NCBI GenBank assembly: GCA_032128015.1
Contig: JAQBHE010000174.1
Span: 1 to 34,817 of the forward strand
DNA length: 34,817 bases
Reading direction: 5' to 3'
Source: Holophagae bacterium
GTDB lineage: Bacteria; Acidobacteriota; Thermoanaerobaculia; Multivoradales; Multivoraceae
The translations under genes and the position numbers were made by a program. This document shows positions 13,142-29,785 of the stretch, piece by piece (within the stretch, counting starts at the first letter, position 1; every line of letters begins with the position of its first letter). The notes beneath the pieces are model-generated. The model worked only from the letters and a program-made list of their open reading frames with translations, ran no database searches and was not told the origin of the DNA.

Positions 13142-13503
13142 GTCGCGCCGCCCCGGTCCCTATCGGGATCGCTCCGCGGCGGGCGGGTACGGCCGCTTGC
13201 CAGGCATCGAACGAAGTCTTGCGGCTTCCGCTACGCTCCGGTCTACGATGCTCACTGGGCGCCCGAGCTACGCTCGGTGTCCCGAGGGCATCCACGACCC
13301 GCGGAGGCCAGCGGGCCGTTCGATCTTCTGCCGATGTGCTGCGACGAGGCTGGGACGAACTCGGCTCAGGGGTCTAATCGTGGTTGCAGCGGAGATCCCA
13401 TCGGACATGGCCTTCGCTCGCCACCGAAAACACTCTTCGATTCCGGAGTCGAACTCCGCCGCGCGGGCCCCGGCTTTCGGCGTTCGGGTGTCGAGACCTT
13501 GAG

Positions 13504-14611: not shown

Positions 14612-15682
14612 TCATCGCGCTGCGGCCAAGAGTTGGACGCGGTTGGCGAAGTAGGTCGACCATTGCTCGCGTCGATTGCGCCGCCAGGCCTCCGGGCGCC
14701 GTTCGAGCGGCACGACCTCGTAGTCGTAGTCCCTCAATGCCTGGCCGAGGTGACGGTTGACGAGGGCGATCTCGTAGGGTGTGATCTCGGACCGCCAGTC
14801 CTCGAGCGGCGTGTGATCGATGCCCGAGAAGCGTCTTCCAGACGTGCTGTTGCCGGTCCACGGTTGGCCGAGAAGAGTCGGCTCGAGGCGGATGTCGGCG
14901 CCTGCGATCCCGAGAAAGGCGGCGAGCTCGGCGAGCACCGAGGTCGGATCGCTCACCAGGGTCTCGTAGCGAACGACTCGGTAGCATTCGCCGAGGTTCC
15001 GCCGGTTGACGGCGGCCAGTTCGTAGGACGATCGCAGCTCCCGGAGGGATGGGCGCAGCGAAGGATAGCGAGGCGTGCGGCCGACCAGGTGGTCGCCGGT
15101 CGCGACTCGTCTTAGCGCGCGCAGGGTCGCATAGGGGTTGCGGACGACGTGGAGGAAGCGGGCGTTCGGGAACCACTCCCGCAACAGCGGCGCGTACTCC
15201 TCTTGGTGCGGCGACTTCTCGACCCATCTCCGGGTCGCGAGGTCACCGCTCGCTTGACCGGTGGCGGCGAGCAGCGCCTCGAAGAAGCGCCGATAGATCT
15301 CGCGATGGGACCGCAGCGCCGGGGGGGCGAGGACGGTGTGTACGAAGACCTCGGGGTCCAGCGGCGAGAAGTCGTGAGGAGGGTCGACGCGGATCCGGCG
15401 TTCGAGCCGCGCCAGTCGCTCGGGGTCTCGCACCTGGAGGAAGAACAGCTGGTCGAGCATCGCCTCGGCGATCGCCGGCGGTTCGACGAGTCGGCCGAGC
15501 TTGCGGAACCCAAGCCGGCTCGGGTGATCCGAGAAGCGGAAGACGTTGAGCTCGGAGGGCATCACCAGGAGCTCGGGGTGGCCGTCGAGCAGGGCCTGGA
15601 GCAGGGTGGTCCCTGACTTGGCGCAACCGACGATGAACACCGGTCCTGTCGCGGGCGACGACCACGGGTCGCGGTCGGTCAT
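14612..15682 (-). CDS. Sulfotransferase family protein (PAPS-dependent type).
   Basis: A 5'-PSB-like loop VFIVGCAKSGTTLL sits near the N-terminus, with RNPYATL (3'-PB-like) further on. The start overlaps the upstream methyltransferase stop (ATGA at 15679-15682). Confidence 0.8.
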   Translation of the reverse strand: MTDRDPWSSPATGPVFIVGCAKSGTTLLQALLDGHPELLVMPSELNVFRFSDHPSRLGFRKLGRLVEPPAIAEAMLDQLFFLQVRDPERLARLERRIRVDPPHDFSPLDPEVFVHTVLAPPALRSHREIYRRFFEALLAATGQASGDLATRRWVEKSPHQEEYAPLLREWFPNARFLHVVRNPYATLRALRRVATGDHLVGRTPRYPSLRPSLRELRSSYELAAVNRRNLGECYRVVRYETLVSDPTSVLAELAAFLGIAGADIRLEPTLLGQPWTGNSTSGRRFSGIDHTPLEDWRSEITPYEIALVNRHLGQALRDYDYEVVPLERRPEAWRRNRREQWSTYFANRVQLLAAAR

Positions 15683-16527
15683 GACGACGATCCGGATGTC
15701 CTCTCGAACAGCGCCAGGAAATGGTCGCCCCAGCGGTTGACCGGTGCTGTGCCTGCGAGGCGGACCTCGAGGCGCGCCGCCAGGCGGAAGACCCGCGGCC
15801 AGCGGTCAACCCAGTGGGACAGGTAGCTCGGGGGCACAAGCACGCCGAGAGCGACGGTTCGACGAAGCCGGAATCCCGGCATCAAGTCGCTGGCCAGTCG
15901 GCGAGGGTTCGGGTAGTCGACGCGAAACGCGGGCCCCCCCGCGATCTCGGCGGTGACGCTCGAAGCGAGACGCCGGAAGCCTCGACGCAGGTCTCCGCGG
16001 ATCGCGTGAGAGCAGATCTCCCACGGGCACCAGCGGCCCATGACCACCACGGCCAGGGGAGCGCCCGCCGGGAGCCGGGACGCGAGCGCGCGCGCCAACG
16101 CCGGACGATCCGACAGACAGTTGAAGACGCCGAAGTTGGACAGGGCGCCGGTGATGTGTCCAACGGCGTTGGGCACGACGTTGTCGAGCGCGGTCTCGGC
16201 CTTGTCCAGATCCATTGGCAGGCAGCGAACAGACTCCGAGTGGCCGGCGCGCGCGAGTTTGCTTCGGGCTTGCTCGACCATCGCGACCGAGCGATCGACA
16301 GCAGTGACCTCGAGGCCCTTGCCGGCCAACCACAGCGCGTCCTCGCCGGTCCCGCAACCAAGGTCCAGGATGTGGCCGGGACGACAGAAGACGGGATCGA
16401 GCAGAGAGTGAACTCGAGCCCGGAGCCACCGGCCGAGAGCGGTGTGGCTGAACCGTGTGTCGTAGTCGGTTGCGGCGCGGTCGAATGGAGCTTCGCGCTC
16501 GTCGCTCGCGCTTGGGCTTGCGATCAG
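15679..16527 (-). CDS. Class I SAM-dependent methyltransferase with an uncertain 5' end and no canonical start upstream of motif I.
   Basis: Motif I ILDLGCGTGEDALWLAGKG and the preceding FDRAATDYDTRF...GRWLR region lie upstream of the first canonical start codon (TTG 16329) but in the same open frame. The only plausible initiator after the upstream gene's stop is the CTG at 16527, overlapping that stop as CTGA. Confidence 0.7.
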   Translation of the reverse strand: MIASPSASDEREAPFDRAATDYDTRFSHTALGRWLRARVHSLLDPVFCRPGHILDLGCGTGEDALWLAGKGLEVTAVDRSVAMVEQARSKLARAGHSESVRCLPMDLDKAETALDNVVPNAVGHITGALSNFGVFNCLSDRPALARALASRLPAGAPLAVVVMGRWCPWEICSHAIRGDLRRGFRRLASSVTAEIAGGPAFRVDYPNPRRLASDLMPGFRLRRTVALGVLVPPSYLSHWVDRWPRVFRLAARLEVRLAGTAPVNRWGDHFLALFERTSGSSS

Positions 16528-16994
16528 GGGCAGGTTGAAAAGGCCCGGGTATCTTGGATTGGCTGGAAGGGCGTGTTCAGCGGGTTCTGGTAGCCGCGCG
16601 GGACTCCGGTCTCGGTGTCGATGACCGACATCTCCACGCGGACGTCCGTCAGACCGCCTGCGAACACCCAGAAGGCGTTGTTGATCGAGCAGGCGTTGAG
16701 CACTTTGATCACCATTTCGACGTTGTTCTTGTCAAAGAACCAGAAGTATCCGGTGTCCCCGGTCAGCGCGACCGCCTGTCCTTGGCCGGCCCCGCCCTGG
16801 GAGGACCACAGCGTGCGAACCTGGAACCGACCGTCGCTCAGGCACAGCGTCGTCTTGTCCGCGACGCACTTGTCGTAGCTTTGAGCGAACAGCTGCCAGT
16901 GGAATGGCGCTGAGTCGAGGGACAGAAACGGCAGCGCCACGCTGCCCGCGAGGCACAGCAGCAGGGCGACGATAGAGCGGTAGGCCAAGCGCAT
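16524..16994 (-). CDS. Small secreted protein carrying a conserved Cys-containing domain of unknown function.
   Basis: It has a signal peptide MRLAYRSIVALLLCLAGSVALPFLS (alternative GTG start at 17060). The domain reads LCLSDGRFQVRTLW...TGYFWFFDKNNVEMVIKVLNACSINNAFWVFAGGLTDVRV...FQPIQDTRAFSTCP and is paralogous to 2482..2688. Confidence 0.75.
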   Translation of the reverse strand: MRLAYRSIVALLLCLAGSVALPFLSLDSAPFHWQLFAQSYDKCVADKTTLCLSDGRFQVRTLWSSQGGAGQGQAVALTGDTGYFWFFDKNNVEMVIKVLNACSINNAFWVFAGGLTDVRVEMSVIDTETGVPRGYQNPLNTPFQPIQDTRAFSTCP

Positions 16995-17064
16995 GGGGAG
17001 AGCTTCTTGGAGTGATCGGCCTCGAGGGCTGCTGGCGAGCCGTTTTGAGAACGCTAGCACAAAG

Positions 17065-18561
17065 TCAAGGTCCCTGGTCCGCGGGCCCCTGCCCCGCGGG
17101 CCGCTCGATAGAGGCTCGCCGCACCACGCGAAACAGAGGGCCGTCGGCGACGACCTCGAGCGCGGGCGTTCCGAGCGTCGGCGCGTCCAGGTAAACCGGT
17201 CGCCGCTCGACCTCGACCTCGAGAAAAGGCCAGAGATTCTCGTCCGAGATCAAGAACCGGTTGATCGTCCGCACGTCGGCGCGCTGGTGCTCGACGAGCT
17301 GCAAGTACTCGACGACCGGGGCCGTTGCCCAGCCCGCGCACAGCAGGGCGTTCGGCTCCATGAACCGGAGCACTCTCTCGCCACGGTGGCGCGCGCTCCA
17401 GTCGTTGGACAGATCGACCCCGCCGCCGCGCAGCCCTGCCCACACGACTCCAGCGAGTACCAGCCCACGCACCAACGCGAGAGCTGAGCCGACCCAGCGC
17501 TCGTTCGATTCCTCACGGATCCAATCGAACAGCGTTTGGTAGCCAACGCCTAACCACACCGCCCAGATCAAGTAGCTGGGCAGGAACATCGTGCTCTTGT
17601 CGATGACCCGGTAGGAGGCGAAGAACGCGGTGTGCGCGCCGAACATCAGCAGTAGCGCCCCGCCGAAATCGGGGCGCCGTCGCGTCAGTACGAACGCGCC
17701 GAGGAGCCCGGGGCCGATGCCGATCGCCGCGAACGCACGCCACAGCTCGACCAGGAACCTTCCCAGCTGAACGAGCAGACCGCTGGCGTCGTACCCCCCA
17801 AAGTCGCTCGCGAAGCGCTGCCCCGAAGCCAGCCACCACATTCCGGATAGGGTCGAAAGATCGATCCGCTGGAAGCGACCCCCGGCGTTGTACTCGCCGA
17901 CGTAGTCGAACGCCGGCGCGGAGTGCTGGAGCAGGGTTAGATAGAAGTAGAGGGCCAGGCCGCCGACCACCGGCAGAAGCGCCAGCGCCAGATGGCGCCA
18001 ACGCCGCGAGCGCCGCTGTCGAGCGAGTACCCAGAGCACTCCGGGCGCCCACAACACCGTTGCCAGATGATGGGCCAAACCCAACCCCAGGCAAGTGCCG
18101 ACCAGGGTGAGGTGGCGTTCCCGTGGGTGCTCTAGCCAGTGGAGCAGGGACCACATGAAGGCGCACTGGATGAGTGTTTGGGGCGTGTAGACCTCGGCGA
18201 TCAGGGACAGTGCCCAGAAGAAGTGGGAGACCGCGAGCAGTCCGACGGCGCCCGCCCGCGCCCACGGACCGACGCCGAGCTTGGCGAGCAGGCGCTCGAG
18301 CACGACCAGGGTCAGAGCGCCACAGAGCGCGCTCAGCAGGTTCATTCGATAACCGACGTCGCCGATCGGCAGTCTCGACCAAAAGCGTCCGACCAGCAGG
18401 TAGAGCGGATAGCCGGTCGAACGCACCAAGCCGCCGGTGTACGACGCGGTGGTGAGCTCGGCGCTGTCGAGGTTGTAGACGGTCGGCGCCAGAGTGGTGA
18501 TGTAGAGCGCGAGGGACAGGGCGAGCACCAAGAGCGGCGCGGTCAGGGTCGTTGGCCTCAC
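17065..18561 (-). CDS. DUF2723 family membrane protein (GT-C fold, PMT/TMEM260-like glycosyltransferase).
   Basis: The N-terminal signature is LYITTLAPTVYNLDSAELTTASYTGGLVRSTGYPLYLLVGRFWSRLP...YRMNLLSAL. About 10 or more hydrophobic helices follow, then a soluble C-terminal ~120 aa. Confidence 0.8.
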   Translation of the reverse strand: MRPTTLTAPLLVLALSLALYITTLAPTVYNLDSAELTTASYTGGLVRSTGYPLYLLVGRFWSRLPIGDVGYRMNLLSALCGALTLVVLERLLAKLGVGPWARAGAVGLLAVSHFFWALSLIAEVYTPQTLIQCAFMWSLLHWLEHPRERHLTLVGTCLGLGLAHHLATVLWAPGVLWVLARQRRSRRWRHLALALLPVVGGLALYFYLTLLQHSAPAFDYVGEYNAGGRFQRIDLSTLSGMWWLASGQRFASDFGGYDASGLLVQLGRFLVELWRAFAAIGIGPGLLGAFVLTRRRPDFGGALLLMFGAHTAFFASYRVIDKSTMFLPSYLIWAVWLGVGYQTLFDWIREESNERWVGSALALVRGLVLAGVVWAGLRGGGVDLSNDWSARHRGERVLRFMEPNALLCAGWATAPVVEYLQLVEHQRADVRTINRFLISDENLWPFLEVEVERRPVYLDAPTLGTPALEVVADGPLFRVVRRASIERPAGQGPADQGP

Positions 18562-18571
18562 CGAGTTGGCC

Positions 18572-20374
18572 TCACGGGGTCCGCACCAGAGATCGGAACT
18601 CCTCAGCGGTCGGACCGGTGACGGGCGCGAAGCTGAGAAAGCGGAGGCCGGCTACCGTGGTGTCTGCGAACAGAGCCAGATCCCGGGTGCGCGCCGCCGC
18701 GATCCAAGGCTCGAGCTCCTCGAGGCTCGGCGCCCGGGTCACGACCCTGAATCTCTCGACGGCACCACCCCGGAGCCTCAACCAGTCGGCGAGCCGCGCC
18801 GGCTCCGCCACCGCGAACATCGGTTGCTCGACGAAGGTGGTGGCGAGCGAGCTTGGCAGCCAATAGAGGTCGGTGACGGTCAGGGCACCGCTCTTCGCCA
18901 ATTCTTCGCGGTACTGCAGGAGGTCACCCTTTGCCGAACGCAGCTCGCGCCAGCCGCGGAGCTCGAACAGCGCGCCGAGGGTGACGGCAGCGACCATGAG
19001 CCCGAGGAGCAGGTGGCGGTATCCCTGGCCGTCGCCGGACCCGAGCTCTTCGACGAAGAGCAGCGCGCCGACGATACCCAGTGGATAGAGCACCAGGAGG
19101 TAGCGGTTACCCCACTCCATCCCGCCGAAGAGGAGGGGCAGCGAGGCTACGGTGCCGAGCCCCAGCGTCGCCAGGGTCGTCGTGGCAAGCAGCCGTCGAT
19201 TCGCGACCGGGTCGCGAAGCCCCCGGAGCGCGTACGGCACGCTCAGTAGCATGAGAGGAACGGGGAGAAACAACGCGTGCACGACCCGAAAGCGGATCGG
19301 TGAGCTGACCGTCCAGGCGAGCGCGGCCAGGATCGGCAGAAGCCCGACCAGCGCCAGCCGTAGCCGCCAGCGACCGCGGCAGACCGCGGCGGCGGCAGCC
19401 AAGGCGATGCCGCCTGCCGCGGCCGCCGCGAGGGGCCGCGGCAGCGGCGGAGTGCCCGGCAGCGGGGCGCCGACGAAGATCGCGATCAGCCGTTCGTCGA
19501 TGCGTGACCAGAAGTGGCGAGAGCCGAACAGGTCGAGCATGGTGCCGGCCAGCATCCGTTCGGTCGCGGTCATCGAATCGATGAGGACGCCGAGCTCGGG
19601 CGAGCCGTGGCCGAGAGCCAGAACGAGTACGACGATGGCGAGGGCAAGCGCTAACCGACGACGGCGCCTGGGTGAAGGCGCAGGCCCCGCGGTGACCCAG
19701 GGCCGTCGCGCCCACGCCGTGGCGGCGATCAAGGCCGAACCGAAGAGCACCATCTCGTGACGCAACAGCACGGCGATCACCAGCAGGATTACGGCGAGTC
19801 CGTCGCGTCGCCGATCAGGCGGCCGCAGCACCAGCGCGAGGGCGCCAAGGCCGCTGGCCACGGCGGCGGTGTGCTCCCAGAACACCAGCCCGTAGAACAG
19901 CACCGGGCTGGCGAACGCGGTGATGATCGTCGCCGCCTGGCAGATCCCCTCCCTGGCCCCGACCCGACGGGCGATCGAGCCGGCGAGGGCGGCGGTCGCG
20001 AGCGCCGCGAGCCAAGGGATGACCGTCAGACCCCGTAGTCCCATCAGTTGGTAGAACGGTCGCGACAACAACGGGAATGCTGAGCTCCAGTTGAAGTCGA
20101 CACCACCTCCCGGTCGTGGTTGGGGGTAGGTCAAGCTGATTTCGTGGAATGGATGCTCGCGGGCGAGACGGCGGGGGTAGAAGTCGTACATCGGGTCGAG
20201 CAAGCGACCGGGATAGACGACTTCGGCCTCGAGCCCGTGGTTCCACGAGAAGGCGGTCATCTGGAGAAACTTGGAGCCCTCGTCGGGCGACCAGAAAACC
20301 TGCGGGGGCAACGACAACGAGAGTGCGAGATAGAGGCTCGCGATCAGCGCGAGGATGGCGGCGCGGCGGTGCAT
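18572..20374 (-). CDS. Large polytopic membrane protein, putative GT-C-type (ArnT/PMT-like) glycosyltransferase. Family not recognised.
   Basis: The 600-aa ORF is extremely hydrophobic with many helices. An acidic motif lies in the first extracytoplasmic segment (FWSPDEGSKF) and the C-terminal ~130 aa are soluble. It sits 10 nt upstream of the DUF2723 gene on the same strand. Confidence 0.55.
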   Translation of the reverse strand: MHRRAAILALIASLYLALSLSLPPQVFWSPDEGSKFLQMTAFSWNHGLEAEVVYPGRLLDPMYDFYPRRLAREHPFHEISLTYPQPRPGGGVDFNWSSAFPLLSRPFYQLMGLRGLTVIPWLAALATAALAGSIARRVGAREGICQAATIITAFASPVLFYGLVFWEHTAAVASGLGALALVLRPPDRRRDGLAVILLVIAVLLRHEMVLFGSALIAATAWARRPWVTAGPAPSPRRRRRLALALAIVVLVLALGHGSPELGVLIDSMTATERMLAGTMLDLFGSRHFWSRIDERLIAIFVGAPLPGTPPLPRPLAAAAAGGIALAAAAAVCRGRWRLRLALVGLLPILAALAWTVSSPIRFRVVHALFLPVPLMLLSVPYALRGLRDPVANRRLLATTTLATLGLGTVASLPLLFGGMEWGNRYLLVLYPLGIVGALLFVEELGSGDGQGYRHLLLGLMVAAVTLGALFELRGWRELRSAKGDLLQYREELAKSGALTVTDLYWLPSSLATTFVEQPMFAVAEPARLADWLRLRGGAVERFRVVTRAPSLEELEPWIAAARTRDLALFADTTVAGLRFLSFAPVTGPTAEEFRSLVRTP

Positions 20375-20388
20375 CAGCGTGGCCCGGC

Positions 20389-21399
20389 TCAGACCGCGGC
20401 GGATTCACGGCTCGGCCCGTCGGTCGGGAACTCGTCGATCGGGAACAGGGCGGCGAGCCGCCGGCAATAGGCCTCCTCGATCGTGCGCCGGTGACCGTGC
20501 TGGTGTCCCTTGCAGACTTCCGGGCCAAGCTCGACTTCGGCTGCCGGGCCGGTCGAGCTCGAGATCTCGAGGATCTTGCGCCGGCGGATGATCGATTCCA
20601 GGCGATCGCCGAGACCGCCGCCGAGCAGGCGCTCGAGAAGGGCCGATCCGCCCGCATCCGGGATGTTGGCGTCGTACCCTGGAGGCGGTCCCGCCGCGTT
20701 GGGTAACCAGGCTTCCAGCCACGAGTTCTCGTCGCGCAGGCGCGCATAGGTGGTCCCGCCGGCCACCGGCACCATTTGCGCCAGCTCACGCGCTTCGTAC
20801 AAGGAGCCCAGGTGCGAATCGGCGGCGAGCTGGAGCGCGAGCTCGCTGACCAGGTAGTTCGGGCACAGTTTGACTCCGCGCAGACGCGCCAATCGCACCA
20901 GCTGGACGACGAACAGTCGGGCGATCCAGACCCGTCCGTGGCGGCAGACGATCAGCAAGTCGATGTCGTCGCTGTCGGCGGCCTGGCCGAGCGCGAGCGC
21001 GCCGGTGACCGCCACCATCTTGACGAAGGGGACCCGGGAGATCGCGGTCGCATACCGCCGCGCCCTCGGCCATCGCGCGGCGGCCAGGCGGGCGCGCCGT
21101 CGCTGGATGGCGCCGACATCCCGGCGGTCTGCGAGACCGAAGCGGCCCCCGTGATCCGACACCCTGGCGTGCTCGACGAGGCGCGCGACGGCGACCGCCA
21201 CCGCTGTCTGCGGGGCACGGACCGCGTCGAGGAAGCGGTGGATCTCGGTGACCGAGAGCGGGTGGTCGAAGAGATCGGAATACGCGAGGGGTGCGCAGGA
21301 TCGCCCGGTCCAGCCGCTGTTCTGTGTCAGACTCGAAGTCGGGAATGCCTTGCTGGTGAGGCTGGTGACGGGCGAGCATCGCATCTCCGTCTGCCACAA
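20389..21399 (-). CDS. Nucleotidyltransferase-fold (Pol-beta superfamily-like) protein of unknown function.
   Basis: The segment VTGALALGQAADSDDIDLLIV fits the G[SA]...DxD minimal nucleotidyltransferase motif. The tracked start at 21399 is TTG, and an ATG at 21384 is an alternative. It ends 14 nt before the membrane protein gene. Confidence 0.6.
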   Translation of the reverse strand: MWQTEMRCSPVTSLTSKAFPTSSLTQNSGWTGRSCAPLAYSDLFDHPLSVTEIHRFLDAVRAPQTAVAVAVARLVEHARVSDHGGRFGLADRRDVGAIQRRRARLAAARWPRARRYATAISRVPFVKMVAVTGALALGQAADSDDIDLLIVCRHGRVWIARLFVVQLVRLARLRGVKLCPNYLVSELALQLAADSHLGSLYEARELAQMVPVAGGTTYARLRDENSWLEAWLPNAAGPPPGYDANIPDAGGSALLERLLGGGLGDRLESIIRRRKILEISSSTGPAAEVELGPEVCKGHQHGHRRTIEEAYCRRLAALFPIDEFPTDGPSRESAAV

Positions 21400-21484: not shown

Positions 21485-22747
21485 GTGACGATCGAGGGTA
21501 GTGTTCGCGCGGTTCCGCTGCGGATCGGCGTCGACTTGACCGCGCTGCTGCCGGAACCGACCGGAGTCGACCGCTACCTTCACTCTCTGGTCGATGCGCT
21601 TGCCGTGGTCGGAAGTGGCGAAAGGTTCGTCCTGTTCGTCAATCGCGAGGACCTCGAGACCTTTCGCAACCACCCGCTCGCAGACCGAGTGGTCTCGTGG
21701 TCGCGCCGGCCGCGGGCATCGAGGCTGTTTTTTCACCAGCTGCTGCTGCCGATGCTGGCGGTTTGGCACCGGCTCGATGTCCTCCATTCCCCCTCCTTTT
21801 TGCTGCCGCTGGCCGCGCGCAGGGTCGCCCAGGTGTTGACGGTCTACGACATGACCTCTTTCACCCACCCCGAGTGCCATATCCCACTGCGCCGAAGCGC
21901 GCCCTATCGCTTCGGCGTGCGCCGGAGCATTGCGCGGGCCGACCTCGTTACCGTGCCGTCAGGCAGCGCCAAGGAGGACCTTGTGCGCCTCTTTCCGGCG
22001 GTTTCCCCGGCCAAGATCCGGGTGGTGCGACCGGGGATCTCGGAGAGCTTCCGGCCCGTGGAGAACGGTGTGATCGTCGAGACCTTGGAGCGCCTCGGTC
22101 TGCCGCGAGGTTACTTGTTGTTCTTGGGCACGCTCGAACCGAGAAAGAATGTGAGCCGACTGCTCGAGGCCTACAAGTCGCTCGCGCGGACCGGAGATTT
22201 GCTCGAGGACCTGGTACTGGTCGGCCGGCACGGTTGGGGGTGCTCTGACCTGGTCGAAATGGTGCGCCGCTATGGCCTGGGCGATCGGGTTCATCTGACG
22301 GGCTACGTCGACTCGGCCGACCTTCCTGCGCTCCTCTCCGGAGCCCGCGCCCTGGTCTACCCATCGTTGCATGAGGGGTTCGGATTCCCGCCGCTCGAAG
22401 CGATGGCCTGCGCGACCCCGGTGGTCGCGAGCCGCAACAGCGCGATGATCGAGAATCTCGAGGGCGCGGCGCTGCTGGTCGACCCACTGGACGTCGAGGA
22501 ACTACGCGGGGCGATTCACCGCGTCCTGCGCGACCAGCGCCTCCGGGACGAGTTGGTCGTCGCCGGTCGGGAGCGCGCTCGGCGCTTCTGCTGGGGGGAG
22601 ACCGCGCGCCTGACCCTCGCCTGCTACCGCGAGGCGACCCTCACGTCCGACCGCGAGACCGCGTCCCCGTCCCGGTCTCCGCACCTTGGCTCGCCGGGCC
22701 GGAATCGGGGCTTGGCCCTGAATCCGCGCTCGCGGGAAAATCGATGA
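21485..22747 (+). CDS. Family 4 (GT-B fold) glycosyltransferase.
   Basis: The N-terminus is LRIGVDLTALLPEPTGVDRY, followed by YLLFLGTLEPRKN and the EX7E region PSLHEGFGFPPLEAMACATPVVAS. I chose the GTG at 21485 because the upstream part of the tracked ORF overlaps the divergent gene. The stop overlaps the next start (ATGA at 22744-22747). Confidence 0.85.
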   Translation: MTIEGSVRAVPLRIGVDLTALLPEPTGVDRYLHSLVDALAVVGSGERFVLFVNREDLETFRNHPLADRVVSWSRRPRASRLFFHQLLLPMLAVWHRLDVLHSPSFLLPLAARRVAQVLTVYDMTSFTHPECHIPLRRSAPYRFGVRRSIARADLVTVPSGSAKEDLVRLFPAVSPAKIRVVRPGISESFRPVENGVIVETLERLGLPRGYLLFLGTLEPRKNVSRLLEAYKSLARTGDLLEDLVLVGRHGWGCSDLVEMVRRYGLGDRVHLTGYVDSADLPALLSGARALVYPSLHEGFGFPPLEAMACATPVVASRNSAMIENLEGAALLVDPLDVEELRGAIHRVLRDQRLRDELVVAGRERARRFCWGETARLTLACYREATLTSDRETASPSRSPHLGSPGRNRGLALNPRSRENR

Positions 22748-24303
22748 GCACGCGGCGAACCGGCAAGGCCAAGGTTCTTCTGGGCCAGGCCTACTCGTTG
22801 CGTCTCGATCCCAAGCTGCGACAGGCGATGCAGCCGTATCCGCCGCTGGCGACGTTATACGCGGCCAGTGTGCTGCGTGCTCATGGCTGGGAAGTGGCGC
22901 TGTTCGACGCCACGCTCGCCGAGTCCTCGTTCGCGTGGAGCGAAGCGTTGGAGCGGAACCTGCCGGAGGTCGTCGTTCTCTACGAGGACAGCTTCAACTA
23001 TCTCTCCAAGATGTGTCTGTCACGGATCCGGGAAGAGGCGCTGTCGATGATCGCGGCAGCGCGGCGGACGGCAGGCGTGGTGATTGTCGCTTCCTCGGAC
23101 GCCAGCGACTGCCCCGACCTTTATCTCGAAGGGGGGGCCGATTACGTCCTCGTCGGCGAGGCCGAGGAGTCGCTGGTCGAGCTCCTCGCGAGACTCGAGG
23201 CGGGGAAACTGGGGGAGGGCGACACGATCGCCGGGGTCGTCGGCCGTCGCGGCCAGCCGGTGGTGCGCCGGCCGCCGATCTCCGACCTCGACTCCCTGCC
23301 ACTGCCGGCCTGGGACCTGGTCGATGTCGATCGCTACCGGCACGCCTGGAGGGCGCGACACGGCCTCTTCTCGCTCAACATGGTGACTACCCGAGGCTGC
23401 CCGTACCACTGCAACTGGTGCGCCAAACCGATCTGGGGTCAGCGCTACCACAGTCGTTCGCCGGAGAACGTCGTGCTCGAGATGCAGCGACTCGCGGAGC
23501 GTTACGCCCCGGACCATCTCTGGTTCATGGACGACATCTTCGGGCTGCGCCCCGGTTGGATTGGCGAGCTCGCCGATCGGCTGGAGAGTTGCGGCTTGCG
23601 ACTGCCGTTCAAGTGCTTGTCCCGCCCCGATCTGTTGCTACGCGCGGGCGAGGTCGATGCCTTGGCCCGGGCCGGCTGCGAGAACGTGTGGATGGGCGCG
23701 GAATCGGGGTCGCAGCGGATCCTCGACGCCATGGAGAAGGGCACCACGGTCGAACAGATCCGGCAGGCTTCGACGCGGCTCCGCGCGGCGGGAATCCAAG
23801 TCGGTCTGTTCTTGCAGTTCGGTTACCCCGGCGAGACCCGGGAGGACATCGAGCGGACCTTCTCGCTGGTCAGGGAGGTTTTGCCCAACGACATCGGGGT
23901 GTCGGTCTCCTACCCCCTTCCGGGAACCAAGTTCCACGAGCGGGTGCGCGAGGAGCTCCTAGAGAAGGACCACTGGGTGGACTCGGCAGACCTCGACATG
24001 ATGTATCAGGGTCCGTTCGTCTCCGATTTCTACCGGCAGTTGCACCGGGTTCTCCACCTCGAGTTTCGCGCGCGGCGGTCCGCCGCGACGTTGCTGGCGA
24101 GCTTGCGGAGCCCGCGCCGTCTGCGTCCAAGACACCTGGGCGCCGCGGCGCGCGCTGCGGTCAGCCTGTTGCGTTTGCCGGTCGAGCGACGAAGGCTCGA
24201 TCACCTCGGACTCGCGGCTCCGCGTCCTACCAGGATCCCCGGGCCGGAGCTCAGTGCCGCCGAGGCCAGCCGGCCGACGCCGCAACCGATAGAGCAGCGA
24301 TGA
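22744..24303 (+). CDS. B12-binding-domain radical SAM enzyme (class B), copy 1.
   Basis: The N-terminal Rossmann-like B12 domain reads YPPLATLYAASVLRAHGWEVALFD...VVLYEDSF...IVASSDASDCP. The CxxxCxxC motif RGCPYHCNWC has Cys codons at 23398, 23410 and 23419. It also has GCENVWMGAESGSQRILDAMEKG. Confidence 0.9.
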   Translation: MSTRRTGKAKVLLGQAYSLRLDPKLRQAMQPYPPLATLYAASVLRAHGWEVALFDATLAESSFAWSEALERNLPEVVVLYEDSFNYLSKMCLSRIREEALSMIAAARRTAGVVIVASSDASDCPDLYLEGGADYVLVGEAEESLVELLARLEAGKLGEGDTIAGVVGRRGQPVVRRPPISDLDSLPLPAWDLVDVDRYRHAWRARHGLFSLNMVTTRGCPYHCNWCAKPIWGQRYHSRSPENVVLEMQRLAERYAPDHLWFMDDIFGLRPGWIGELADRLESCGLRLPFKCLSRPDLLLRAGEVDALARAGCENVWMGAESGSQRILDAMEKGTTVEQIRQASTRLRAAGIQVGLFLQFGYPGETREDIERTFSLVREVLPNDIGVSVSYPLPGTKFHERVREELLEKDHWVDSADLDMMYQGPFVSDFYRQLHRVLHLEFRARRSAATLLASLRSPRRLRPRHLGAAARAAVSLLRLPVERRRLDHLGLAAPRPTRIPGPELSAAEASRPTPQPIEQR

Positions 24304-25772
24304 ATCGACTCGCATCCGAACGCCCCGACCTGCTGCTCGCTCACGGCTACTGCCTGGTCGAGGATGAGCTCGAGCGGCGGATCATGAAGCCGTACCCACC
24401 CCTGGGATTGCTCTACCTCTCGTCGCACCTCAAGCGCGCCGGGATGTCGGTCGAGGTGTTCGATTCGACCTTCCGGTCGCGGTCGGAGTTCGAGCAGGTG
24501 CTCGAGGCAAGACGACCTCGGGTGGTCGGGCTCTCCGCCAACCTGATGACCAAGTTCAACGTCTTGAGAATGATCGAGCAGTGCCGTCGTGCCGGGATCC
24601 CGACCATCCTCGGTGGGCCGGAGCCCGCGCAATACGCCCAAGAGTACCTGGACTTCGGCGTCGATGTCGTGGTGGTGGGCGAGGGCGAGTTGACGCTCGA
24701 AGAGATCGTGCCACGGCTGAGCGCGGGCGGCGCCGCGAGTGTCGCCGGGACTCCCGGAGTGATCGTCGCCGATGGCCTGGGCGGGCTGGTGAACGGTGGT
24801 CCCCGGAAGCTGATCGGCGATCTCTCCGGCCAGCCCTGGCCCGACCGCGAGGCGATCGATTGCGACCGCTACCTCGAGGTGTGGAAGCGCCACCATGGCA
24901 AGGGCTCCCTGTCGCTGATCACCGCGCGTGGGTGTCCGTACACCTGTGCCTGGTGCAGCCATTCGGTCTACGGACGAAGCTACCGGCGACGGGCGGCGTC
25001 GGATGTCGCCGACGAGATCCAGTGGCTCCTGGGTCGCTACGCTCCCGATCAGCTGTGGTTCGCCGACGATGTCTTCACCTTGGATCGTCGTTTCATCCTC
25101 GAGCTTGCTGGCGAGCTCGAACGACGCGCGATCCGCATTCCCTTCGAATGCATCAGTCGCGCCGACCGGATCGATCCGGAGGTGGTCGAGGCGCTGGTCG
25201 GGCTCGGGTGCTGGCGACTGTGGATCGGGTCCGAGAGCGGGTCCCAGCGCATCCTCGACCGAATGCAGCGGCGGACTGCTGTCGAAGACGTTCGAGCGAA
25301 GGCCCGCCTGCTCCAGGCCGCCGGAATCGAGGTCGGGATGTTCATCATGCTCGGCTACGACGGCGAGGAGGCCTCCGATATCGCGGCGACCATCGAGCAT
25401 CTCAAAGCCTGCGCGCCCGATGTCTATCTGACGACCGTTGCCTATCCGATCAAAGGCACTTCCTACTACGACGAGGTTGCCGGCGCGATCCGCACCGATC
25501 GCCCGTGGGCGCAGCGTACCGATCGCGATCTGCGGATCGAGGGTCGCCATTCGGCGCGCTACTACCACAACGCGGTGCGTTGGATCGAGGGCAGCGTCGC
25601 CCTGCACCGGGCGAGTCAGAGCGGGCGGCTCCCTTCCATCGAGCGGCTCCAATCCTGGCTGAAGACGATGCACGGGCGGATCGGGATGAGGCTCGCGCGC
25701 GCAGAAACCGAGGTCGGGAAGGCGAGTGGCCGGGGCTGGCGGCCGGCGGACCGAACAGGTGTGGGATGGTGA
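24300..25772 (+). CDS. B12-binding-domain radical SAM enzyme (class B), copy 2, clearly paralogous to copy 1.
   Basis: Family segments are YPPLGLLYLSSHLKRAGMSVEVFD and ILGGPEP. The motif RGCPYTCAWC has Cys codons at 24933, 24945 and 24954. It also has GCWRLWIGSESGSQRILDRMQR. The ATG overlaps the copy 1 stop (ATGA at 24300-24303). Confidence 0.9.
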   Translation: MNRLASERPDLLLAHGYCLVEDELERRIMKPYPPLGLLYLSSHLKRAGMSVEVFDSTFRSRSEFEQVLEARRPRVVGLSANLMTKFNVLRMIEQCRRAGIPTILGGPEPAQYAQEYLDFGVDVVVVGEGELTLEEIVPRLSAGGAASVAGTPGVIVADGLGGLVNGGPRKLIGDLSGQPWPDREAIDCDRYLEVWKRHHGKGSLSLITARGCPYTCAWCSHSVYGRSYRRRAASDVADEIQWLLGRYAPDQLWFADDVFTLDRRFILELAGELERRAIRIPFECISRADRIDPEVVEALVGLGCWRLWIGSESGSQRILDRMQRRTAVEDVRAKARLLQAAGIEVGMFIMLGYDGEEASDIAATIEHLKACAPDVYLTTVAYPIKGTSYYDEVAGAIRTDRPWAQRTDRDLRIEGRHSARYYHNAVRWIEGSVALHRASQSGRLPSIERLQSWLKTMHGRIGMRLARAETEVGKASGRGWRPADRTGVGW

Positions 25773-25793
25773 GCGATGGGATGGTGAGCCGAT
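25763..25793 (+). repeat. Tandem duplication (15 + 16 nt) at the junction of radical SAM copies 2 and 3.
   Basis: GGGATGGTGAGCGAT is followed by GGGATGGTGAGCCGAT. The first copy holds the copy 2 stop (25770-25772) and the second ends at the copy 3 ATG (25792). Confidence 0.6.
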
Positions 25794-27291
25794 GAGCGCA
25801 AGAACGTCGCCGCCGAACGTGATCCTGTTCAATCCACGATCTTCGGCCAATGCAAAACCGATCCTGCCGATGTCTTTGCTCGCGCTCGGTGCTGTGCTCG
25901 AGAATCGGGTCGAGTACCGTATCGTCGACGGCAACCTCGAGCAGGATCCCGGCTCGGCGCTCGACGCCCTCATCCGGAGTCTCGATGGCGAGGTGCTCCT
26001 CGGTGTGACCGTGATGCCCGGGCCTCAGCTCGAGCAGGCGACCGCGATCTGTCGTGAGTTGAAGCGGCGCCACCCCAGGTTGATCGTGATCTGGGGCGGC
26101 TACTTTCCTACCGAGCACTGGCAGGCTTGCCTGCGGTCCGGCTTCGTCGACTTCGTCCTGCGCGGACACGCCGAGTACTCGTTCGCCGAGCTGATCGACA
26201 GGATTCGAGACGGCGCCGATCCGCGGGGTGTCGCCGGTCTGGCGATGGTCGTGGCCGGTAGCGAGCCAGTGAGCGAGCCGATGGCGCCAGTACCTGCCCC
26301 CGAGGAGCTTCCCCAGTGGAATCTCGCGAAGGTGCCGATGGAAAGCTACCTGCGCCGGACCTTCCTCGGCGCACGCACGATCGGCTACAACTCTTCCTAT
26401 GGTTGTCCCTTTCGTTGCAACTTCTGCGCGGTGGTCAACCTGGTCGACGGCCGATGGCTGGCCCAGTCGCCGGGGCGGGTGGCGGCAGCCGTCGAGCGGT
26501 ATCGGTCTGGTTGGGGCGTCGACGCGGTCGAGATGGTCGACAACAACTTCTTCGTCCACGAGCGGCGGACCCGCGAATTCGCCGAACGCATCCGCGACCT
26601 CGGGGTCTCATGGTGGGGCGAGGCGCGGGTCGACACCTTGCTGCAGTACTCGGATCGCACCTGGATGACGATGAAGGAATCGGGACTGCGCATGGTGTTT
26701 CTCGGCGCCGAGTCAGGGTCCGCAGAAACCCTCGAGCGGATGGACAAGGGGGGTCGCCTGACGCCGGAGATGACAATCGAGCTCGCCCAGCGCATGCGAA
26801 GCCTCGGCGTCGTGCCCGAGTTCTCGTTCGTCTTGGGCTCGCCGCCCGATCCGGTCGGCGACGTCGAGTGCACGCTGCGCTTCGTTCGCCGGCTCAAGAA
26901 GGTCAACCCGGATGCCGAGATCATCTTGTACTTGTATACTCCGGTGCCGCTCTCCGGCGATCTACTGGACCGGGCCGTGGAGGCGGGGTTTCGCTTCCCC
27001 GAGACGCTCGACGAATGGGTGTCGCCGCGCTGGTCCGACTTCTCGCAACGCCGTAGCGACGGACTGCCCTGGATCCCTGCGGAGCTGCGGCGCAAAATCC
27101 GCGACTTCGAAAGCGTGCTCGCGGCCTACTATCCGACGACCACCGACGCCCGTCTTCGTGGCGTCTGGCGCGCGGCACTGCGGCTGCTTTCAGGTTGGAG
27201 GTACCGGCACGAGGTCTACGGGTTCCCGCTGGAGCTCAGATTCCTGCAGCGGTTGATGCGCTACCAGCGCCCGGAGGTCTCGGGGTTCTAG
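25792..27291 (+). CDS. B12-binding-domain radical SAM enzyme (class B), copy 3, more divergent.
   Basis: Family segments are ILPMSLLALGAVLE...YRIVDGN and IVIWGGYFPT. The motif YGCPFRCNFC has Cys codons at 26404, 26416 and 26425. It also has VFLGAESGSAETLERMDKG. Confidence 0.85.
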   Translation: MSARTSPPNVILFNPRSSANAKPILPMSLLALGAVLENRVEYRIVDGNLEQDPGSALDALIRSLDGEVLLGVTVMPGPQLEQATAICRELKRRHPRLIVIWGGYFPTEHWQACLRSGFVDFVLRGHAEYSFAELIDRIRDGADPRGVAGLAMVVAGSEPVSEPMAPVPAPEELPQWNLAKVPMESYLRRTFLGARTIGYNSSYGCPFRCNFCAVVNLVDGRWLAQSPGRVAAAVERYRSGWGVDAVEMVDNNFFVHERRTREFAERIRDLGVSWWGEARVDTLLQYSDRTWMTMKESGLRMVFLGAESGSAETLERMDKGGRLTPEMTIELAQRMRSLGVVPEFSFVLGSPPDPVGDVECTLRFVRRLKKVNPDAEIILYLYTPVPLSGDLLDRAVEAGFRFPETLDEWVSPRWSDFSQRRSDGLPWIPAELRRKIRDFESVLAAYYPTTTDARLRGVWRAALRLLSGWRYRHEVYGFPLELRFLQRLMRYQRPEVSGF

Positions 27292-27350: not shown

Positions 27351-28046
27351 CTACCTCTCGGCGCTCAGCCGGTAGATCGTGATGAACTCGCTCACCAGGT
27401 TGGCGCGGTGGACAGCCGCGGTCTCGAGCCCGGCATCTCGGAAGCTCCTGAGGAACCCCGTTTCGTCTCCGTCCGAGGACAGCAGCACGAAGCCTCGGCC
27501 GTGGTCGACGAGGTGCTGTTGGAGTCCGGCCGCGAAGCGGTCCCGGATATCTGTGGCGAAGAAGGCCCGCTCGGTCATGGTGGTCGGCTCGCGACGGAAG
27601 TAAGGCGGGCTGAACAGGACGACCTCGAACCGCTCGCCCGACACTGGCTCATAGAGGTCGCCGTGGCGTACGTCCATCCGGTGCTCGACGCGGTTGAGCA
27701 GCGCGTTGACGCGCGCGCAACGAACCGCGTCCTTGCTGATGTCGGTGGCGACCACCCGCTGGCAGACCGTGGCGAGGCGGGTCGCGAGGATCCCTGAACC
27801 GGTGCCGATCTCGAGCGCCGTGGCGCCCGCGGCCTCGAGTGCCCGGAGCTCCCCGTTTGGATGCAGCTCTCGCTCAATCCAGCGGAGAAAAACGGGTGTC
27901 GTTCGATAGAGCGCTGGGTGAAAGACGCCGGGTAGGACCACCAGCTTGAGTCCGCCGAAGTTCTCGAGCACCACACGCTTTGCGCGTTGCCGCTGGAACA
28001 GCACGTAGCGCGCGGTCAGCAACGTGCGCCAGAGCAGTCGCTTCAA
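27351..28046 (-). CDS. Class I SAM methyltransferase, HemK/PrmC-like small-domain type.
   Basis: Motif I is ALEIGTGSGILATRLA, followed by VVATDIS. Motif IV is the variant FSPPY (an NPPY-type motif). PGVFHP lies upstream. Confidence 0.8.
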   Translation of the reverse strand: MKRLLWRTLLTARYVLFQRQRAKRVVLENFGGLKLVVLPGVFHPALYRTTPVFLRWIERELHPNGELRALEAAGATALEIGTGSGILATRLATVCQRVVATDISKDAVRCARVNALLNRVEHRMDVRHGDLYEPVSGERFEVVLFSPPYFRREPTTMTERAFFATDIRDRFAAGLQQHLVDHGRGFVLLSSDGDETGFLRSFRDAGLETAAVHRANLVSEFITIYRLSAER

Positions 28047-28264: not shown

Positions 28265-29785
28265 CTAGTACGAGGTGGTGACGCCGCTGGCGACGCGCTC
28301 TGGAGTGAGGCGGTCGAGATGAGGCCGGCGTGGTTGGTTCCCGCCGCCAACGTCGGGGTCGGTGGTCGCAGTCTCGTGGTGCTGAAGGTCGACGTTGACC
28401 GACCAGATGTCGTAGTTGGCGCCGGCGAGGTTGCGGGCCGCATAGATGCCGGTCAGCATCGAATGGTCTTGGTTGTTGTAGCGGTGCTGGCCGTTGCGAC
28501 CCATCAGTTGAAGGTTGGAAAAGCTCCGCAAGTAGGGCAACATTCGAGAAAGCACGTCGCGGTAGCGGTGGTCGTAGACCGGATAGGCCTTGGGTACTCG
28601 CACCACCACCGAATCGATCACCTCACTCGCGTCCACGAGTCCGAGCGCCTGGAGCTCGCGGGCGCCGAGCGCGGCCAGTTCTTGGTCGGTCTTGCCGAGC
28701 AGCTCGTCGTGCTCGTGAACGAAGTATTCGAGCCCGAGCGAAGTTCGCGAGGGGTCGGGAACCATCGCCTCGCTCCAGTTCTTGAAGTTCTGGATGCGGC
28801 CGACCCTGACCTCCGGGGAGTGCACGTAGAGCCAGTTGTCGGGAAAGACTCGCGGCCGATCGACGATCAGCACGACCGCTAGGAAATCACGATAACGCAG
28901 CTGGCGGGCGGCGGCGCGCACCGCGCCCGGGGGTGCTGGGTCCAGGCAACCGACGAGGGCCTGAAGCGGCATCGAACAAAGCACCTGGTCGACGTCGAGC
29001 GTGGAGAGCTCGCCGCCGCGATCGACGGTCAGCCGGGTGACTCTGCGGCCGCTGTGGTGGTCGCTGTGGTGGAGCTTGAGCACTCGGGTCCCGGTCCAAG
29101 TCGGCACCCCGGAGCGCTCGAGACGGGCTCGGCAGCTCTCCCACATCATGCCGGGTCCAAGACGGGGATAGAGGAAGCGGTCGATCAGCGTTGTCACGAT
29201 CGCTCCGTCGCCTACGGCTCCGGTTCGCGTGAAGGCGTTTCTCAAGGCGGCCGCGAGATCGAGGTTCTTGATTCGCTGCGCTGCCCAGTCGGAGCTGATC
29301 TCGTGGCAGGGCATGCCCCAAACCTTCTCGGTATAGGACTTGAAGAAGATCTCGTAGAGCCGACGGCCGAAGCGGTTGATCACCCAGGATTCGAAGTCGG
29401 GCTCTTCGGGCAGAGGAGCGAGGCGGGCGCGCAGGTAGCTCAACAGGATGCGGCAGGCTTCGAACGGTCCGAGCCCGAGGACGGCGTTGAGCGGCCGCAG
29501 GGGATAGTCGAAGTAACGTCCCCGATAGTAGATCCGAGACAGCCGTTGGATCTCGAGCAGATCGGCGCCAAGCAACTCCCTCCAGATGTCCTCGACGAGC
29601 GGCGCTTTGGTGAAGAACCGGTGGCCACCGATGTCGAACCGGTAGCCTTTGTACTCGACGGTCCGCGCGAGCCCGCCGACGGTCGAGTCCTGTTCGAGGA
29701 CAATCGCTGGGCGCCCCAGCCTGGAGAGCTCGAGCGCTGCGGTCAGTCCGGCAGGCCCCGCGCCGATGATGAAGGTCTTGTCCAC
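28265..29785 (-). CDS. FAD/NAD(P)-binding oxidoreductase (COG1232-like, UDP-galactopyranose mutase / amine-oxidase-like fold).
   Basis: The N-terminal dinucleotide motif is FIIGAGPAGLTAALEL...VLEQDSTVGGLAR. Further segments are YRFDIGGHRFF, FFKSYTEKVWG and DWAAQRIK. Confidence 0.85.
   Translation of the reverse strand: MDKTFIIGAGPAGLTAALELSRLGRPAIVLEQDSTVGGLARTVEYKGYRFDIGGHRFFTKAPLVEDIWRELLGADLLEIQRLSRIYYRGRYFDYPLRPLNAVLGLGPFEACRILLSYLRARLAPLPEEPDFESWVINRFGRRLYEIFFKSYTEKVWGMPCHEISSDWAAQRIKNLDLAAALRNAFTRTGAVGDGAIVTTLIDRFLYPRLGPGMMWESCRARLERSGVPTWTGTRVLKLHHSDHHSGRRVTRLTVDRGGELSTLDVDQVLCSMPLQALVGCLDPAPPGAVRAAARQLRYRDFLAVVLIVDRPRVFPDNWLYVHSPEVRVGRIQNFKNWSEAMVPDPSRTSLGLEYFVHEHDELLGKTDQELAALGARELQALGLVDASEVIDSVVVRVPKAYPVYDHRYRDVLSRMLPYLRSFSNLQLMGRNGQHRYNNQDHSMLTGIYAARNLAGANYDIWSVNVDLQHHETATTDPDVGGGNQPRRPHLDRLTPERVASGVTTSY

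Follow-up and report, generated by a model that had tools for sequence, protein, structure and literature searches.

Three separately conserved class-B-type radical SAM genes in a putative cell-envelope glycan cassette of a Holophagae bacterium

The window analysed here, the whole 34,817-nucleotide (nt) stretch of contig JAQBHE010000174.1 (assembly GCA_032128015.1) from a Holophagae bacterium, carries three consecutive forward-strand genes for class-B-type radical S-adenosylmethionine (SAM) proteins, rSAM1, rSAM2 and rSAM3, downstream of a GT4 glycosyltransferase gene. rSAM1 (22744-24303; 519 amino acids, aa) is the anchor gene of the cassette described below, and rSAM2 (24300-25772; 490 aa) and rSAM3 (25792-27291; 499 aa, with an alternative GTG start at 25726) are predicted B12-binding radical SAM proteins. 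All three contain the CxxxCxxC motif (RGCPYHCNWC in rSAM1, RGCPYTCAWC in rSAM2, YGCPFRCNFC in rSAM3). The stop of the GT4 gene (21485-22747, forward strand; Pfam Glycos_transf_1, 103 bits, and Glyco_transf_4, 50 bits) overlaps the start of rSAM1 in an ATGA at 22744-22747, and a second ATGA at 24300-24303 joins the rSAM1 stop to the rSAM2 start; rSAM2 and rSAM3 are separated by a gap of 19 nt. The GT4 gene most likely begins at the GTG at 21485 (420 aa) and not at 21248, judging by a 420-aa gene call in a near-identical contig (L001; assembly GCA_032124835.1). An Rfam scan of the whole window placed the cobalamin riboswitch and all other families below their gathering scores, and promoter and terminator scans gave no promoter-like and two terminator-like sites, which is not above shuffled sequence. 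An earlier annotation made from the letters alone (the sequence-only reading) had reported the three motifs, both ATGA junctions and the lack of a cobalamin riboswitch nearby, and each of these observations holds.

The three proteins are related to different degrees. rSAM1 and rSAM2 share 37% identity across an alignment of 434 aa (E 7e-82); the peptide pairs once quoted as signs of their paralogy align as stated. rSAM3 is more divergent, as had been noted, with partial alignments to rSAM1 (28% identity over 256 aa) and rSAM2 (22%). Related loci from other genomes (labelled L001-L091) were compared with the window, and single-linkage clustering at 45% identity of the radical SAM open reading frames (ORFs) of 85 independent loci gives four groups: rSAM1-type genes in 84 loci, rSAM2-type in 41, rSAM3-type in 21 and a fourth type in 12. 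Median identity is 60-63% within these groups and 24-35% between them. The triad genes share 52-62% identity with orthologues elsewhere and only 22-37% with each other. In the Sphaerobacter locus L004, the second radical SAM protein (465 aa) shares 52% identity with rSAM2 and the third shares 60% with rSAM3, and rSAM1 and rSAM3 each have very many relatives at about 60% identity. A recent tandem duplication was considered and rejected, as each copy is closer to orthologues from other phyla than to the neighbouring copies. The triad comprises three old, separately conserved enzyme families and not a local tandem amplification. The sequence-only reading had taken three genes in a row to imply iterative or sequential chemistry on one scaffold. 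Local amplification does not account for the row; because the triad falls into discrete orthogroups, any iterative chemistry by paralogues would be ancient and modular, and many genomes carry an rSAM1-type gene only.

A scan for rSAM1 relatives, with one genome per species, found them encoded in at least 567 genomes. The 80 best are mostly from Chloroflexota (Anaerolineae, Ardenticatenaceae, Promineifilaceae, Thermomicrobiales, Sphaerobacter, Herpetosiphonaceae, Chloroflexia), and a few metagenome-assembled genomes (MAGs) among them are labelled Acidobacteriota, Methylomirabilota, Rhodothermales or Cytophagia, labels that may be wrong for MAGs. The fourth B12 radical SAM orthogroup, about 30% identical to rSAM3, has no member in the window; it lies between the rSAM1- and rSAM2-type genes in L012, L022, L027, L029, L032, L044, L049, L060, L065 and L087. 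Some long-form loci add a SPASM-type radical SAM gene, which brings the number of radical SAM genes per cluster to as many as five.

None of the three proteins belongs to a characterised isofunctional family by NCBIfam cut-offs, which lie at 251-775 bits where the highest scores reach 98-126. Each protein gives low scores of similar size with many B12 radical SAM models, including the ladderane-associated, BchE, HpnJ, HpnR, AprD4, PhpK, Sden_1168, ApyD and methyl-coenzyme M reductase (MCR) glutamine methylase models. For rSAM1, rSAM2 and rSAM3 respectively, the scores are 126.1, 117.9 and 40.1 bits with the ladderane-associated lipid family (TIGR04072, cut-off 360), 102.3, 121.1 and 97.7 bits with BchE (TIGR02026, equivalog cut-off 481.35) and 97.8, 82.2 and 52.4 bits with the AprD4 diol dehydratase (NF033070, cut-off 500). 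The triad scores 84.8-111.8 bits with HpnJ (TIGR03471, cut-off 577.6), 60-97 with HpnR (TIGR04367, cut-off 650), 54-103 with the P-methyltransferases PhpK (TIGR04479, cut-off 600) and Sden_1168 (NF038361, cut-off 575), 55-78 with TIGR03975, a C-methyltransferase family for ribosomally synthesized and post-translationally modified peptides (RiPPs; cut-off 281.85), and 68-108 with ApyD (NF050148, cut-off 750).

Many orthologues are named 'anaerobic Mg-protoporphyrin IX monomethyl ester cyclase' (BchE) by JGI. BchE identity was rejected for the triad, as the scores fall short of the cut-off by a factor of about four, and this widespread annotation of the cassette genes is a mis-annotation. Tetrapyrrole chemistry of the BchE cyclase kind, or P- or C-methylation of phosphonates or phosphinates of the PhpK or Fom3 kind, is extremely improbable as the role of these enzymes. 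Such a role would fit the JGI names, the PhpK and Sden_1168 matches at 84-103 bits and a nucleotidyltransferase-like partner (unk336, below) that recalls Fom1/Fom3. However, BchE scores of 98-121 bits stand against 481, PhpK and Sden_1168 scores are far below 575-600, a six-frame search of 1.43 Mb (window plus loci) found no phosphoenolpyruvate (PEP)-mutase signature (EDKx5NS), and no bch genes were seen. Most cassette hosts belong to non-phototrophic lineages, which also counts against a BchE-like function.

Cobalamin binding differs in certainty across the triad. Pfam Radical_SAM is matched by rSAM1 (70.7 bits), rSAM2 (69.8) and rSAM3 (44.5), all above the gathering score of 29.5, whereas the B12-binding domain (PF02310, gathering score 32.1) is matched above its threshold by rSAM2 (73.5) and rSAM3 (47.4) and below it by rSAM1 (29.4). 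The B12 domain that the sequence-only reading gave to all three proteins is thus a solid prediction for rSAM2 and rSAM3; that of rSAM1 is Rossmann-like in a structural model and sub-threshold by profile. The AlphaFold model of rSAM1 (mean pLDDT 76, with the cluster loop and C-terminus poorly modelled) confirms a predicted two-domain class B architecture. It matches TsrM, AprD4, OxsB, MgmA, TokK and CysS (E 2e-17 to 4e-12) at TM-scores of about 0.5 and no more than 24% identity, and cobalamin-free AprD4 is matched as well as TsrM. By sequence, the nearest solved structures are AprD4 (6fd2), MgmA/QCMT (9ccb), TsrM and TokK, of which AprD4 is the best match (rSAM1, E 3e-25; rSAM3, E 6e-13; about 23-24% identity). 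The modelled rSAM1 is equidistant from methylases and non-methylases.

Residues 80-92 of rSAM1 (window 22981-23019) form an invariant, orthogroup-specific insert, YEDxFNYLSKMCL, with an invariant Cys91. It lies in the loop after the third Rossmann strand, the expected cobalamin loop, where rSAM2 and rSAM3 carry the usual short loop, and it may alter or replace cobalamin binding in rSAM1. AprD4 likewise has a Rossmann-like domain yet does not bind cobalamin (PMC12931638). The B12 assignment of rSAM1 is borderline because of the sub-threshold Pfam score, the loop insert and a similarity to AprD4 equal to that to TsrM, and its cobalamin binding is uncertain. These features bear on a somewhat unlikely alternative to the methylation of sugars argued for below, in which the substrate class is the same and at least one enzyme, especially rSAM1, performs cobalamin-independent or non-methylating radical chemistry: either 1,2-diol dehydration or deoxygenation, as by AprD4, or conversion of a sugar into a carbocycle by ring contraction, as by HpnJ or calditol synthase. 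It would explain the weak B12 domain and the invariant insert in rSAM1; AprD4, documented without cobalamin (PMC12931638), is the best PDB sequence match of rSAM1 and ties structurally with TsrM, HpnJ is among the top hidden Markov model (HMM) matches, and the abundant class I methyltransferases of the cassette could do all the methyl transfer. However, the AprD4 and HpnJ scores (98 against 500 bits and 112 against 578) are far below the cut-offs, no AprD3-like reductase partner was identified, and rSAM2 and rSAM3 have clear B12 domains.

The most constant partner of rSAM1 is a protein here called unk336, and not the GT4 glycosyltransferase. Among the 69 loci with sufficient upstream sequence, an unk336-type gene of about 310-335 aa lies directly upstream of the rSAM1 orthologue in 44, often overlapping it, and a GT4 gene does so in three. 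GT4 as an obligate partner of the triad was therefore rejected; orthologous loci do not always neighbour a GT4 gene. The sequence-only reading had seen in the chained GT4 gene a hint of a sugar or glycolipid scaffold; a carbohydrate substrate is indeed the best-supported guess, although the GT4 link is rare. The best NCBIfam match of the window GT4 protein is the MSMEG_0565 cluster glycosyltransferase (TIGR04047), at 104.3 bits below the cut-off of 259.85.

In the window, unk336 (20389-21384, reverse strand) is divergent from the GT4 gene and 36-45% identical to the genes upstream of rSAM1 in three other genomes. It has no Pfam or NCBIfam match, and a profile search against the PDB reached MNT only at E 0.21; since sequence profiles gave almost nothing, the fold emerged only from structure prediction. 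The AF2 model (pLDDT 90, pTM 0.87) has an N-terminal winged-helix-like domain, a minimal nucleotidyltransferase domain and a C-terminal helical part, and its best Foldseek matches are MntA/MNT adenylyltransferases (E 4e-3, probability 1.0, 115 columns). The motif G126-x11-D138-x-D140 aligns on the MNT motif; G126 and D138 are invariant, and D140 is present in at least 90% of sequences. A HMMER search of 1.84 billion representatives at E<=1e-30 found 3,526 clusters. Among the best 150 family members, unk336 domains are fused to GT4 (three proteins, in both domain orders), GT2 (one) and Wzy_C (one), and the window GT4 protein is 36-38% identical over its full length to the GT4 domains of such fusions. 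unk336 is predicted to be a nucleotidyltransferase-like protein of a large new family tied to glycan assembly; with no Pfam model to cover it, the family merits a definition of its own.

Class I methyltransferases accompany the radical SAM genes. Downstream of the rSAM2-type gene, 22 of 30 loci have an MT294-type methyltransferase gene. The window orthologue (15679-~16460, reverse strand) is 45% identical over 267 aa to L004_MT294, with an uncertain 5' end: motif I (ILDLGCGTG) lies upstream of the first in-frame ATG, GTG or TTG, and the listed ORF has only 216 aa. The missing standard start implies either a CTG or ATC start near 16515-16520 or a sequence error. A HemK/MTS-type class I methyltransferase with an SPPY motif (27351-28046, reverse strand; Pfam MTS, 46.1 bits) is encoded convergently with rSAM3. 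Among PDB entries its product is most similar to GenN, the gentamicin 3''-N-methyltransferase (E 1e-9), and methyltransferases of this type precede rSAM3-type genes in at least eight of 19 loci, plus L090 and L091. Several rSAM1 orthologues form part of fusion proteins of 806-824 aa that also contain a class I methyltransferase. The best NCBIfam match of the radical-SAM-paired methyltransferases (L006:11547-12347, L004:13321-14205 and window 15679-16329, reverse strand) is CpaM, 'corrinoid protein-associated methyltransferase', at 25-69 bits and below the cut-off of 180. Corrinoid loading by the paired methyltransferases is a speculative suggestion, made because these matches are weak but consistent.

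The wider surroundings of the related loci point to glycan assembly. Neighbourhood statistics cover the 80 closest loci and rely on heuristic ORF calling and best-hit BLASTP assignment. Besides methyltransferases and unk336, recurring neighbours are Wzx, Wzy_C, glycosyltransferases (GT4, GT2, GT-A-like and GT-C) and sulfotransferases. Short-form loci have the order unk336, rSAM1, methyltransferase, Polysacc_synt flippase and a conserved 385-aa protein, the last a remote GT-A glycosyltransferase (POMGnT1, E 2e-4; weak GNT-I, MGAT2 and GT2 Pfam matches). In a set of 149 neighbour ORFs that had no other assignment (37 loci), Wzy_C is the commonest Pfam family (12), and GT2 and Polysacc_synt (four each) are also represented; Wzy_C genes usually lie just upstream of unk336. 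To these come 25 flippase (Polysacc_synt) and 29 GT4 ORFs assigned by BLAST. In 16 multi-rSAM loci, the recurring families other than methyltransferases are SPASM radical SAM, GT4, Wzy_C, Polysacc_synt and PMT-type GT-C. Single loci add a GT87 gene, two GT4 genes and Wzy_C (L091), GT4 genes with an arylsulfotransferase (L090) and an LCP gene (L006). Precursor peptide, lipid and phosphonate genes are not recurrent among the cassette neighbours.

Two further genes were seen at short-form loci. A PNP_UDP_1 gene, of the family of methylthioadenosine/S-adenosylhomocysteine (MTA/SAH) nucleosidase, HpnG and MqnB, stands in the short-form operon of L072 (14579-15355), between the flippase and the GT-A-like gene, and in that of five other loci. 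Its product may clear 5'-deoxyadenosine and SAH, or release a nucleoside by cleavage of an intermediate that is adenosylated or nucleotidylated. A glucose-6-phosphate dehydrogenase gene is divergent from unk336 at the short-form cassettes of L006, L007, L014, L021, L056 and L086, loci that include Ardenticatenaceae, Promineofilum and Chloroflexia MAGs, and this arrangement may reflect synteny within particular lineages and not a functional connection.

The same neighbourhoods bear on two other substrates. Modification of a lipid, either membrane-lipid alkyl chains or the polyprenyl carrier, by enzymes like HpnP/HpnR or the glycerol dialkyl glycerol tetraether (GDGT)-modifying or ladderane-associated enzymes, is unlikely. 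The top NCBIfam match of rSAM1 is TIGR04072, a 'lipid biosynthesis B12-binding/radical SAM protein' family, and HpnJ and HpnR also match; a polyprenyl synthase gene lies downstream in the Sphaerobacter locus L004, and several long-form loci have no glycosyltransferases within 10 kb. Yet all these scores are far below the cut-offs (126 against 360 bits for the best), the polyprenyl synthase occurs in one of about 90 loci, fatty-acid, isoprenoid and hopanoid genes do not recur among the Pfam-annotated neighbours, and the partner protein is found fused to glycosyltransferases and Wzy_C. RiPP maturation, with proteusin-like C-methylation of a ribosomal peptide, is very improbable. The combination of several B12 radical SAM enzymes and methyltransferases does resemble polytheonamide-type clusters, some long-form loci include SPASM radical SAM genes, ApyD and TIGR03975 are weakly matched, and L004 has a Frankia_peptide (PF14407) ORF after its rSAM3-type gene. 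However, that ORF has no homologue in the window or the other loci (about 90), genes for proteases, leader recognition, YcaO and lanthionine formation are absent among the recurrent neighbours, and TIGR03975 is matched at 55-78 bits against a cut-off of 282.

The reading we favour, with modest confidence, is that the triad represents three anciently diverged class-B-type subfamilies within a modular, horizontally mobile and mainly Chloroflexota cassette that tailors a cell-envelope glycan. The glycan is suggested by the fusions of unk336 to GT4, GT2 and Wzy_C, by the glycosyltransferase, Wzx and Wzy_C genes of the neighbourhoods and by the glycosyltransferase and sulfotransferase genes of the window, and the radical tailoring is probably C-methylation of envelope-glycan sugars. 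From the domain architectures, orthogroups, neighbourhoods and fusions we infer a substrate class, an order of steps, a methylation chemistry and a use of cobalamin as follows. The core module would consist of the unk336-type winged-helix/nucleotidyltransferase protein, rSAM1 and a class I methyltransferase, to which two accessory modules would be added, one that pairs rSAM2 with a class I methyltransferase of its own and one that pairs rSAM3 with a methyltransferase of the HemK type. The GT4 enzyme and the nucleotidyltransferase-like protein would build or activate a sugar on the cytoplasmic side, linked to a nucleotide or to polyprenyl phosphate. The 5'-deoxyadenosyl radical of each radical SAM enzyme would then abstract an unactivated hydrogen from the sugar and, in rSAM2 and rSAM3 at least, methyl-cobalamin would donate the methyl group of a C-methylation. 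The paired class I methyltransferases would add O- or N-methyl groups and the sulfotransferase a sulfate, and export and attachment would be carried out by GT-C enzymes in the window and by Wzx and Wzy_C in other genomes.

Several points weigh against this proposal. A Pfam scan of the window proteins found neither a MOP-family flippase (Wzx) nor Wzy, and genes of nucleoside diphosphate (NDP)-sugar pathways (dehydratase, aminotransferase) were not seen to recur in the neighbourhoods. In many multi-rSAM loci, neither a glycosyltransferase nor a flippase gene lies within 10 kb, and Wzx accompanies rSAM2-type genes in only one of 22 multi-rSAM loci. For a polysaccharide locus, as many as five clustered radical SAM genes would be an unusual number. 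Lipid and tetrapyrrole families (ladderane-associated, HpnJ, BchE) give the highest HMM scores, although these are sub-threshold. rSAM1 may lack cobalamin, in which case methylation is not assured for this enzyme. A broader version of the envelope-glycan proposal is put forward only tentatively. It holds that the cassette belongs to an unrecognised envelope-glycan pathway, widespread chiefly in Chloroflexota with scattered occurrences in other phyla, in which up to four B12-type radical SAM enzymes would install C-methyl groups or carbocyclic or deoxy sugar changes, each enzyme being paired or fused with its own class I methyltransferase and the intermediates being activated by the unk336 family.

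Known systems share parts of this arrangement. Fom1 uses a different type of nucleotidyltransferase from unk336. The Fom1/Fom3 pathway nevertheless combines a nucleotidyltransferase with a B12 radical SAM methylase, and so parallels the conserved unk336-rSAM1 gene pair; Fom3 requires a cytidylylated substrate (PMC9204698). In contrast to that pathway, unk336 has a predicted minimal MNT/pol-beta-type fold with an N-terminal winged helix, and no locus contains a pepM signature. GenK, GenD1, Fms7 and MoeK5 are B12 radical SAM methylases that act on sugars of the aminoglycosides gentamicin and fortimicin and of the phosphoglycolipid moenomycin (PMC9204698). Like the triad, they have a B12 domain and a CxxxCxxC radical SAM domain; their targets are unactivated sugar carbons and, again like the triad, they are encoded among glycosyltransferases and class I N- or O-methyltransferases (PMC9204698). 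GenN of the gentamicin pathway is also the nearest PDB relative of the window HemK-type methyltransferase. No close sequence relationship emerged from the comparison with solved B12 radical SAM structures, which align with rSAM1 at no more than 24% identity. Unlike the GenK-type antibiotic clusters, the present genes would form a primary envelope-glycan cassette with Wzx, Wzy_C, GT-C and a new nucleotidyltransferase-like family.

AprD4, the apramycin 1,2-diol dehydratase (6fd2), resembles rSAM1 in its Rossmann-like N-terminal domain and acts on a sugar, but it differs in having no cobalamin (PMC12931638), and the triad reaches 52-98 bits against the 500 of its model. HpnJ and calditol synthase remodel a lipid-attached sugar head group by radical SAM chemistry (PMC13459092), and they share with the proposed scheme the principle that a radical SAM enzyme acts, after a glycosyltransferase, on a membrane-anchored sugar. 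They differ in that the HpnJ score is far below 577.6, in that the cassette is without hopanoid or archaeal lipid genes and in that it has three different radical SAM enzymes and several methyltransferases. With Wzx/Wzy-dependent surface polysaccharide loci, the related loci share Polysacc_synt flippases, Wzy_C and GT4, GT2 and GT-A enzymes, together with LCP in L006; unlike such loci, the window has GT-C enzymes instead of Wzx or Wzy.

Literature searches on radical SAM or B12 enzymes with Chloroflexota or glycan assembly returned no paper on the cassette, nor did a search for surface polysaccharides with C-methyl or branched sugars, most subscription journals lying outside the searches. The words 'polysaccharide' and 'glycan' are absent from two reviews of B12 radical SAM enzymes (PMC12931638; PMC9204698). 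If the proposed glycan role is correct, cobalamin-dependent radical SAM enzymes would for the first time have a part in making bacterial cell-surface polysaccharides; the role would extend radical cobalamin chemistry from antibiotics, lipids and cofactors to primary cell-surface glycans, and could explain unusual sugars in abundant bacteria of soil, sludge and sediment. Chloroflexota cell envelopes are poorly understood, and functions have yet to be assigned to most members of the very large B12 radical SAM family. Uncharacterised genes of this family are so common that the trio alone is unsurprising; the added value lies in the cassette, the fusions and the partner family, which turn an anonymous trio into a defined and testable system of three orthogroups with specific partners, informative fusions and a new nucleotidyltransferase-like family.

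The remaining genes of the window cluster lie on either side of the triad. The order unk336 (reverse strand), GT4 (forward strand), rSAM1, rSAM2, rSAM3 recurs in L089 and L017, and L017 additionally shares the GT2, HemK-type methyltransferase and oxidoreductase genes of the window, which suggests that the window cluster spans about 13.4 to 29.8 kb. Its probable outer edge is a GT2 glycosyltransferase gene (13384-14565, forward strand; Pfam Glycos_transf_2, 85.7 bits; two C-terminal transmembrane helices) with a 40% homologue in syntenic L017. Next come, on the reverse strand, a sulfotransferase gene (14612-15682; Pfam Sulfotransfer_3, 93.9 bits) and, beyond the MT294-type gene, two genes for membrane proteins: a GT-C glycosyltransferase (17065-18561; TMEM260-like/PMT_2, Pfam 85.8 and 32 bits; at least five hydrophobic segments) and a polytopic putative glycosyltransferase like LA_3751/LA_3752 (18572-20374; NF047440, 130.8 bits against a cut-off of 200; ten hydrophobic segments). 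At the other probable edge lies a gene for a flavin adenine dinucleotide (FAD) oxidoreductase with an amine-oxidase fold (28265-29785, reverse strand; PRK07208 family, NF005548, 647.7 bits), which has a 50% homologue in L017.

Two paralogous proteins of the window, encoded at 16524-17060 (reverse strand) and 2083-2691 (forward strand), have a common C-terminal domain with the motif VEMV[IV]KVLNACS..FW.FAGGLT.VRV...FQPIQDT.AF.TC and no Pfam match; the former lies inside the glycan cluster and has a signal-peptide-like N-terminus. Upstream of the cluster, 7279-10485 (reverse strand) encodes a secreted-looking protein of 1068 aa with weak matches to NHL repeats and, C-terminally, to Phosphoesterase (PF04185).

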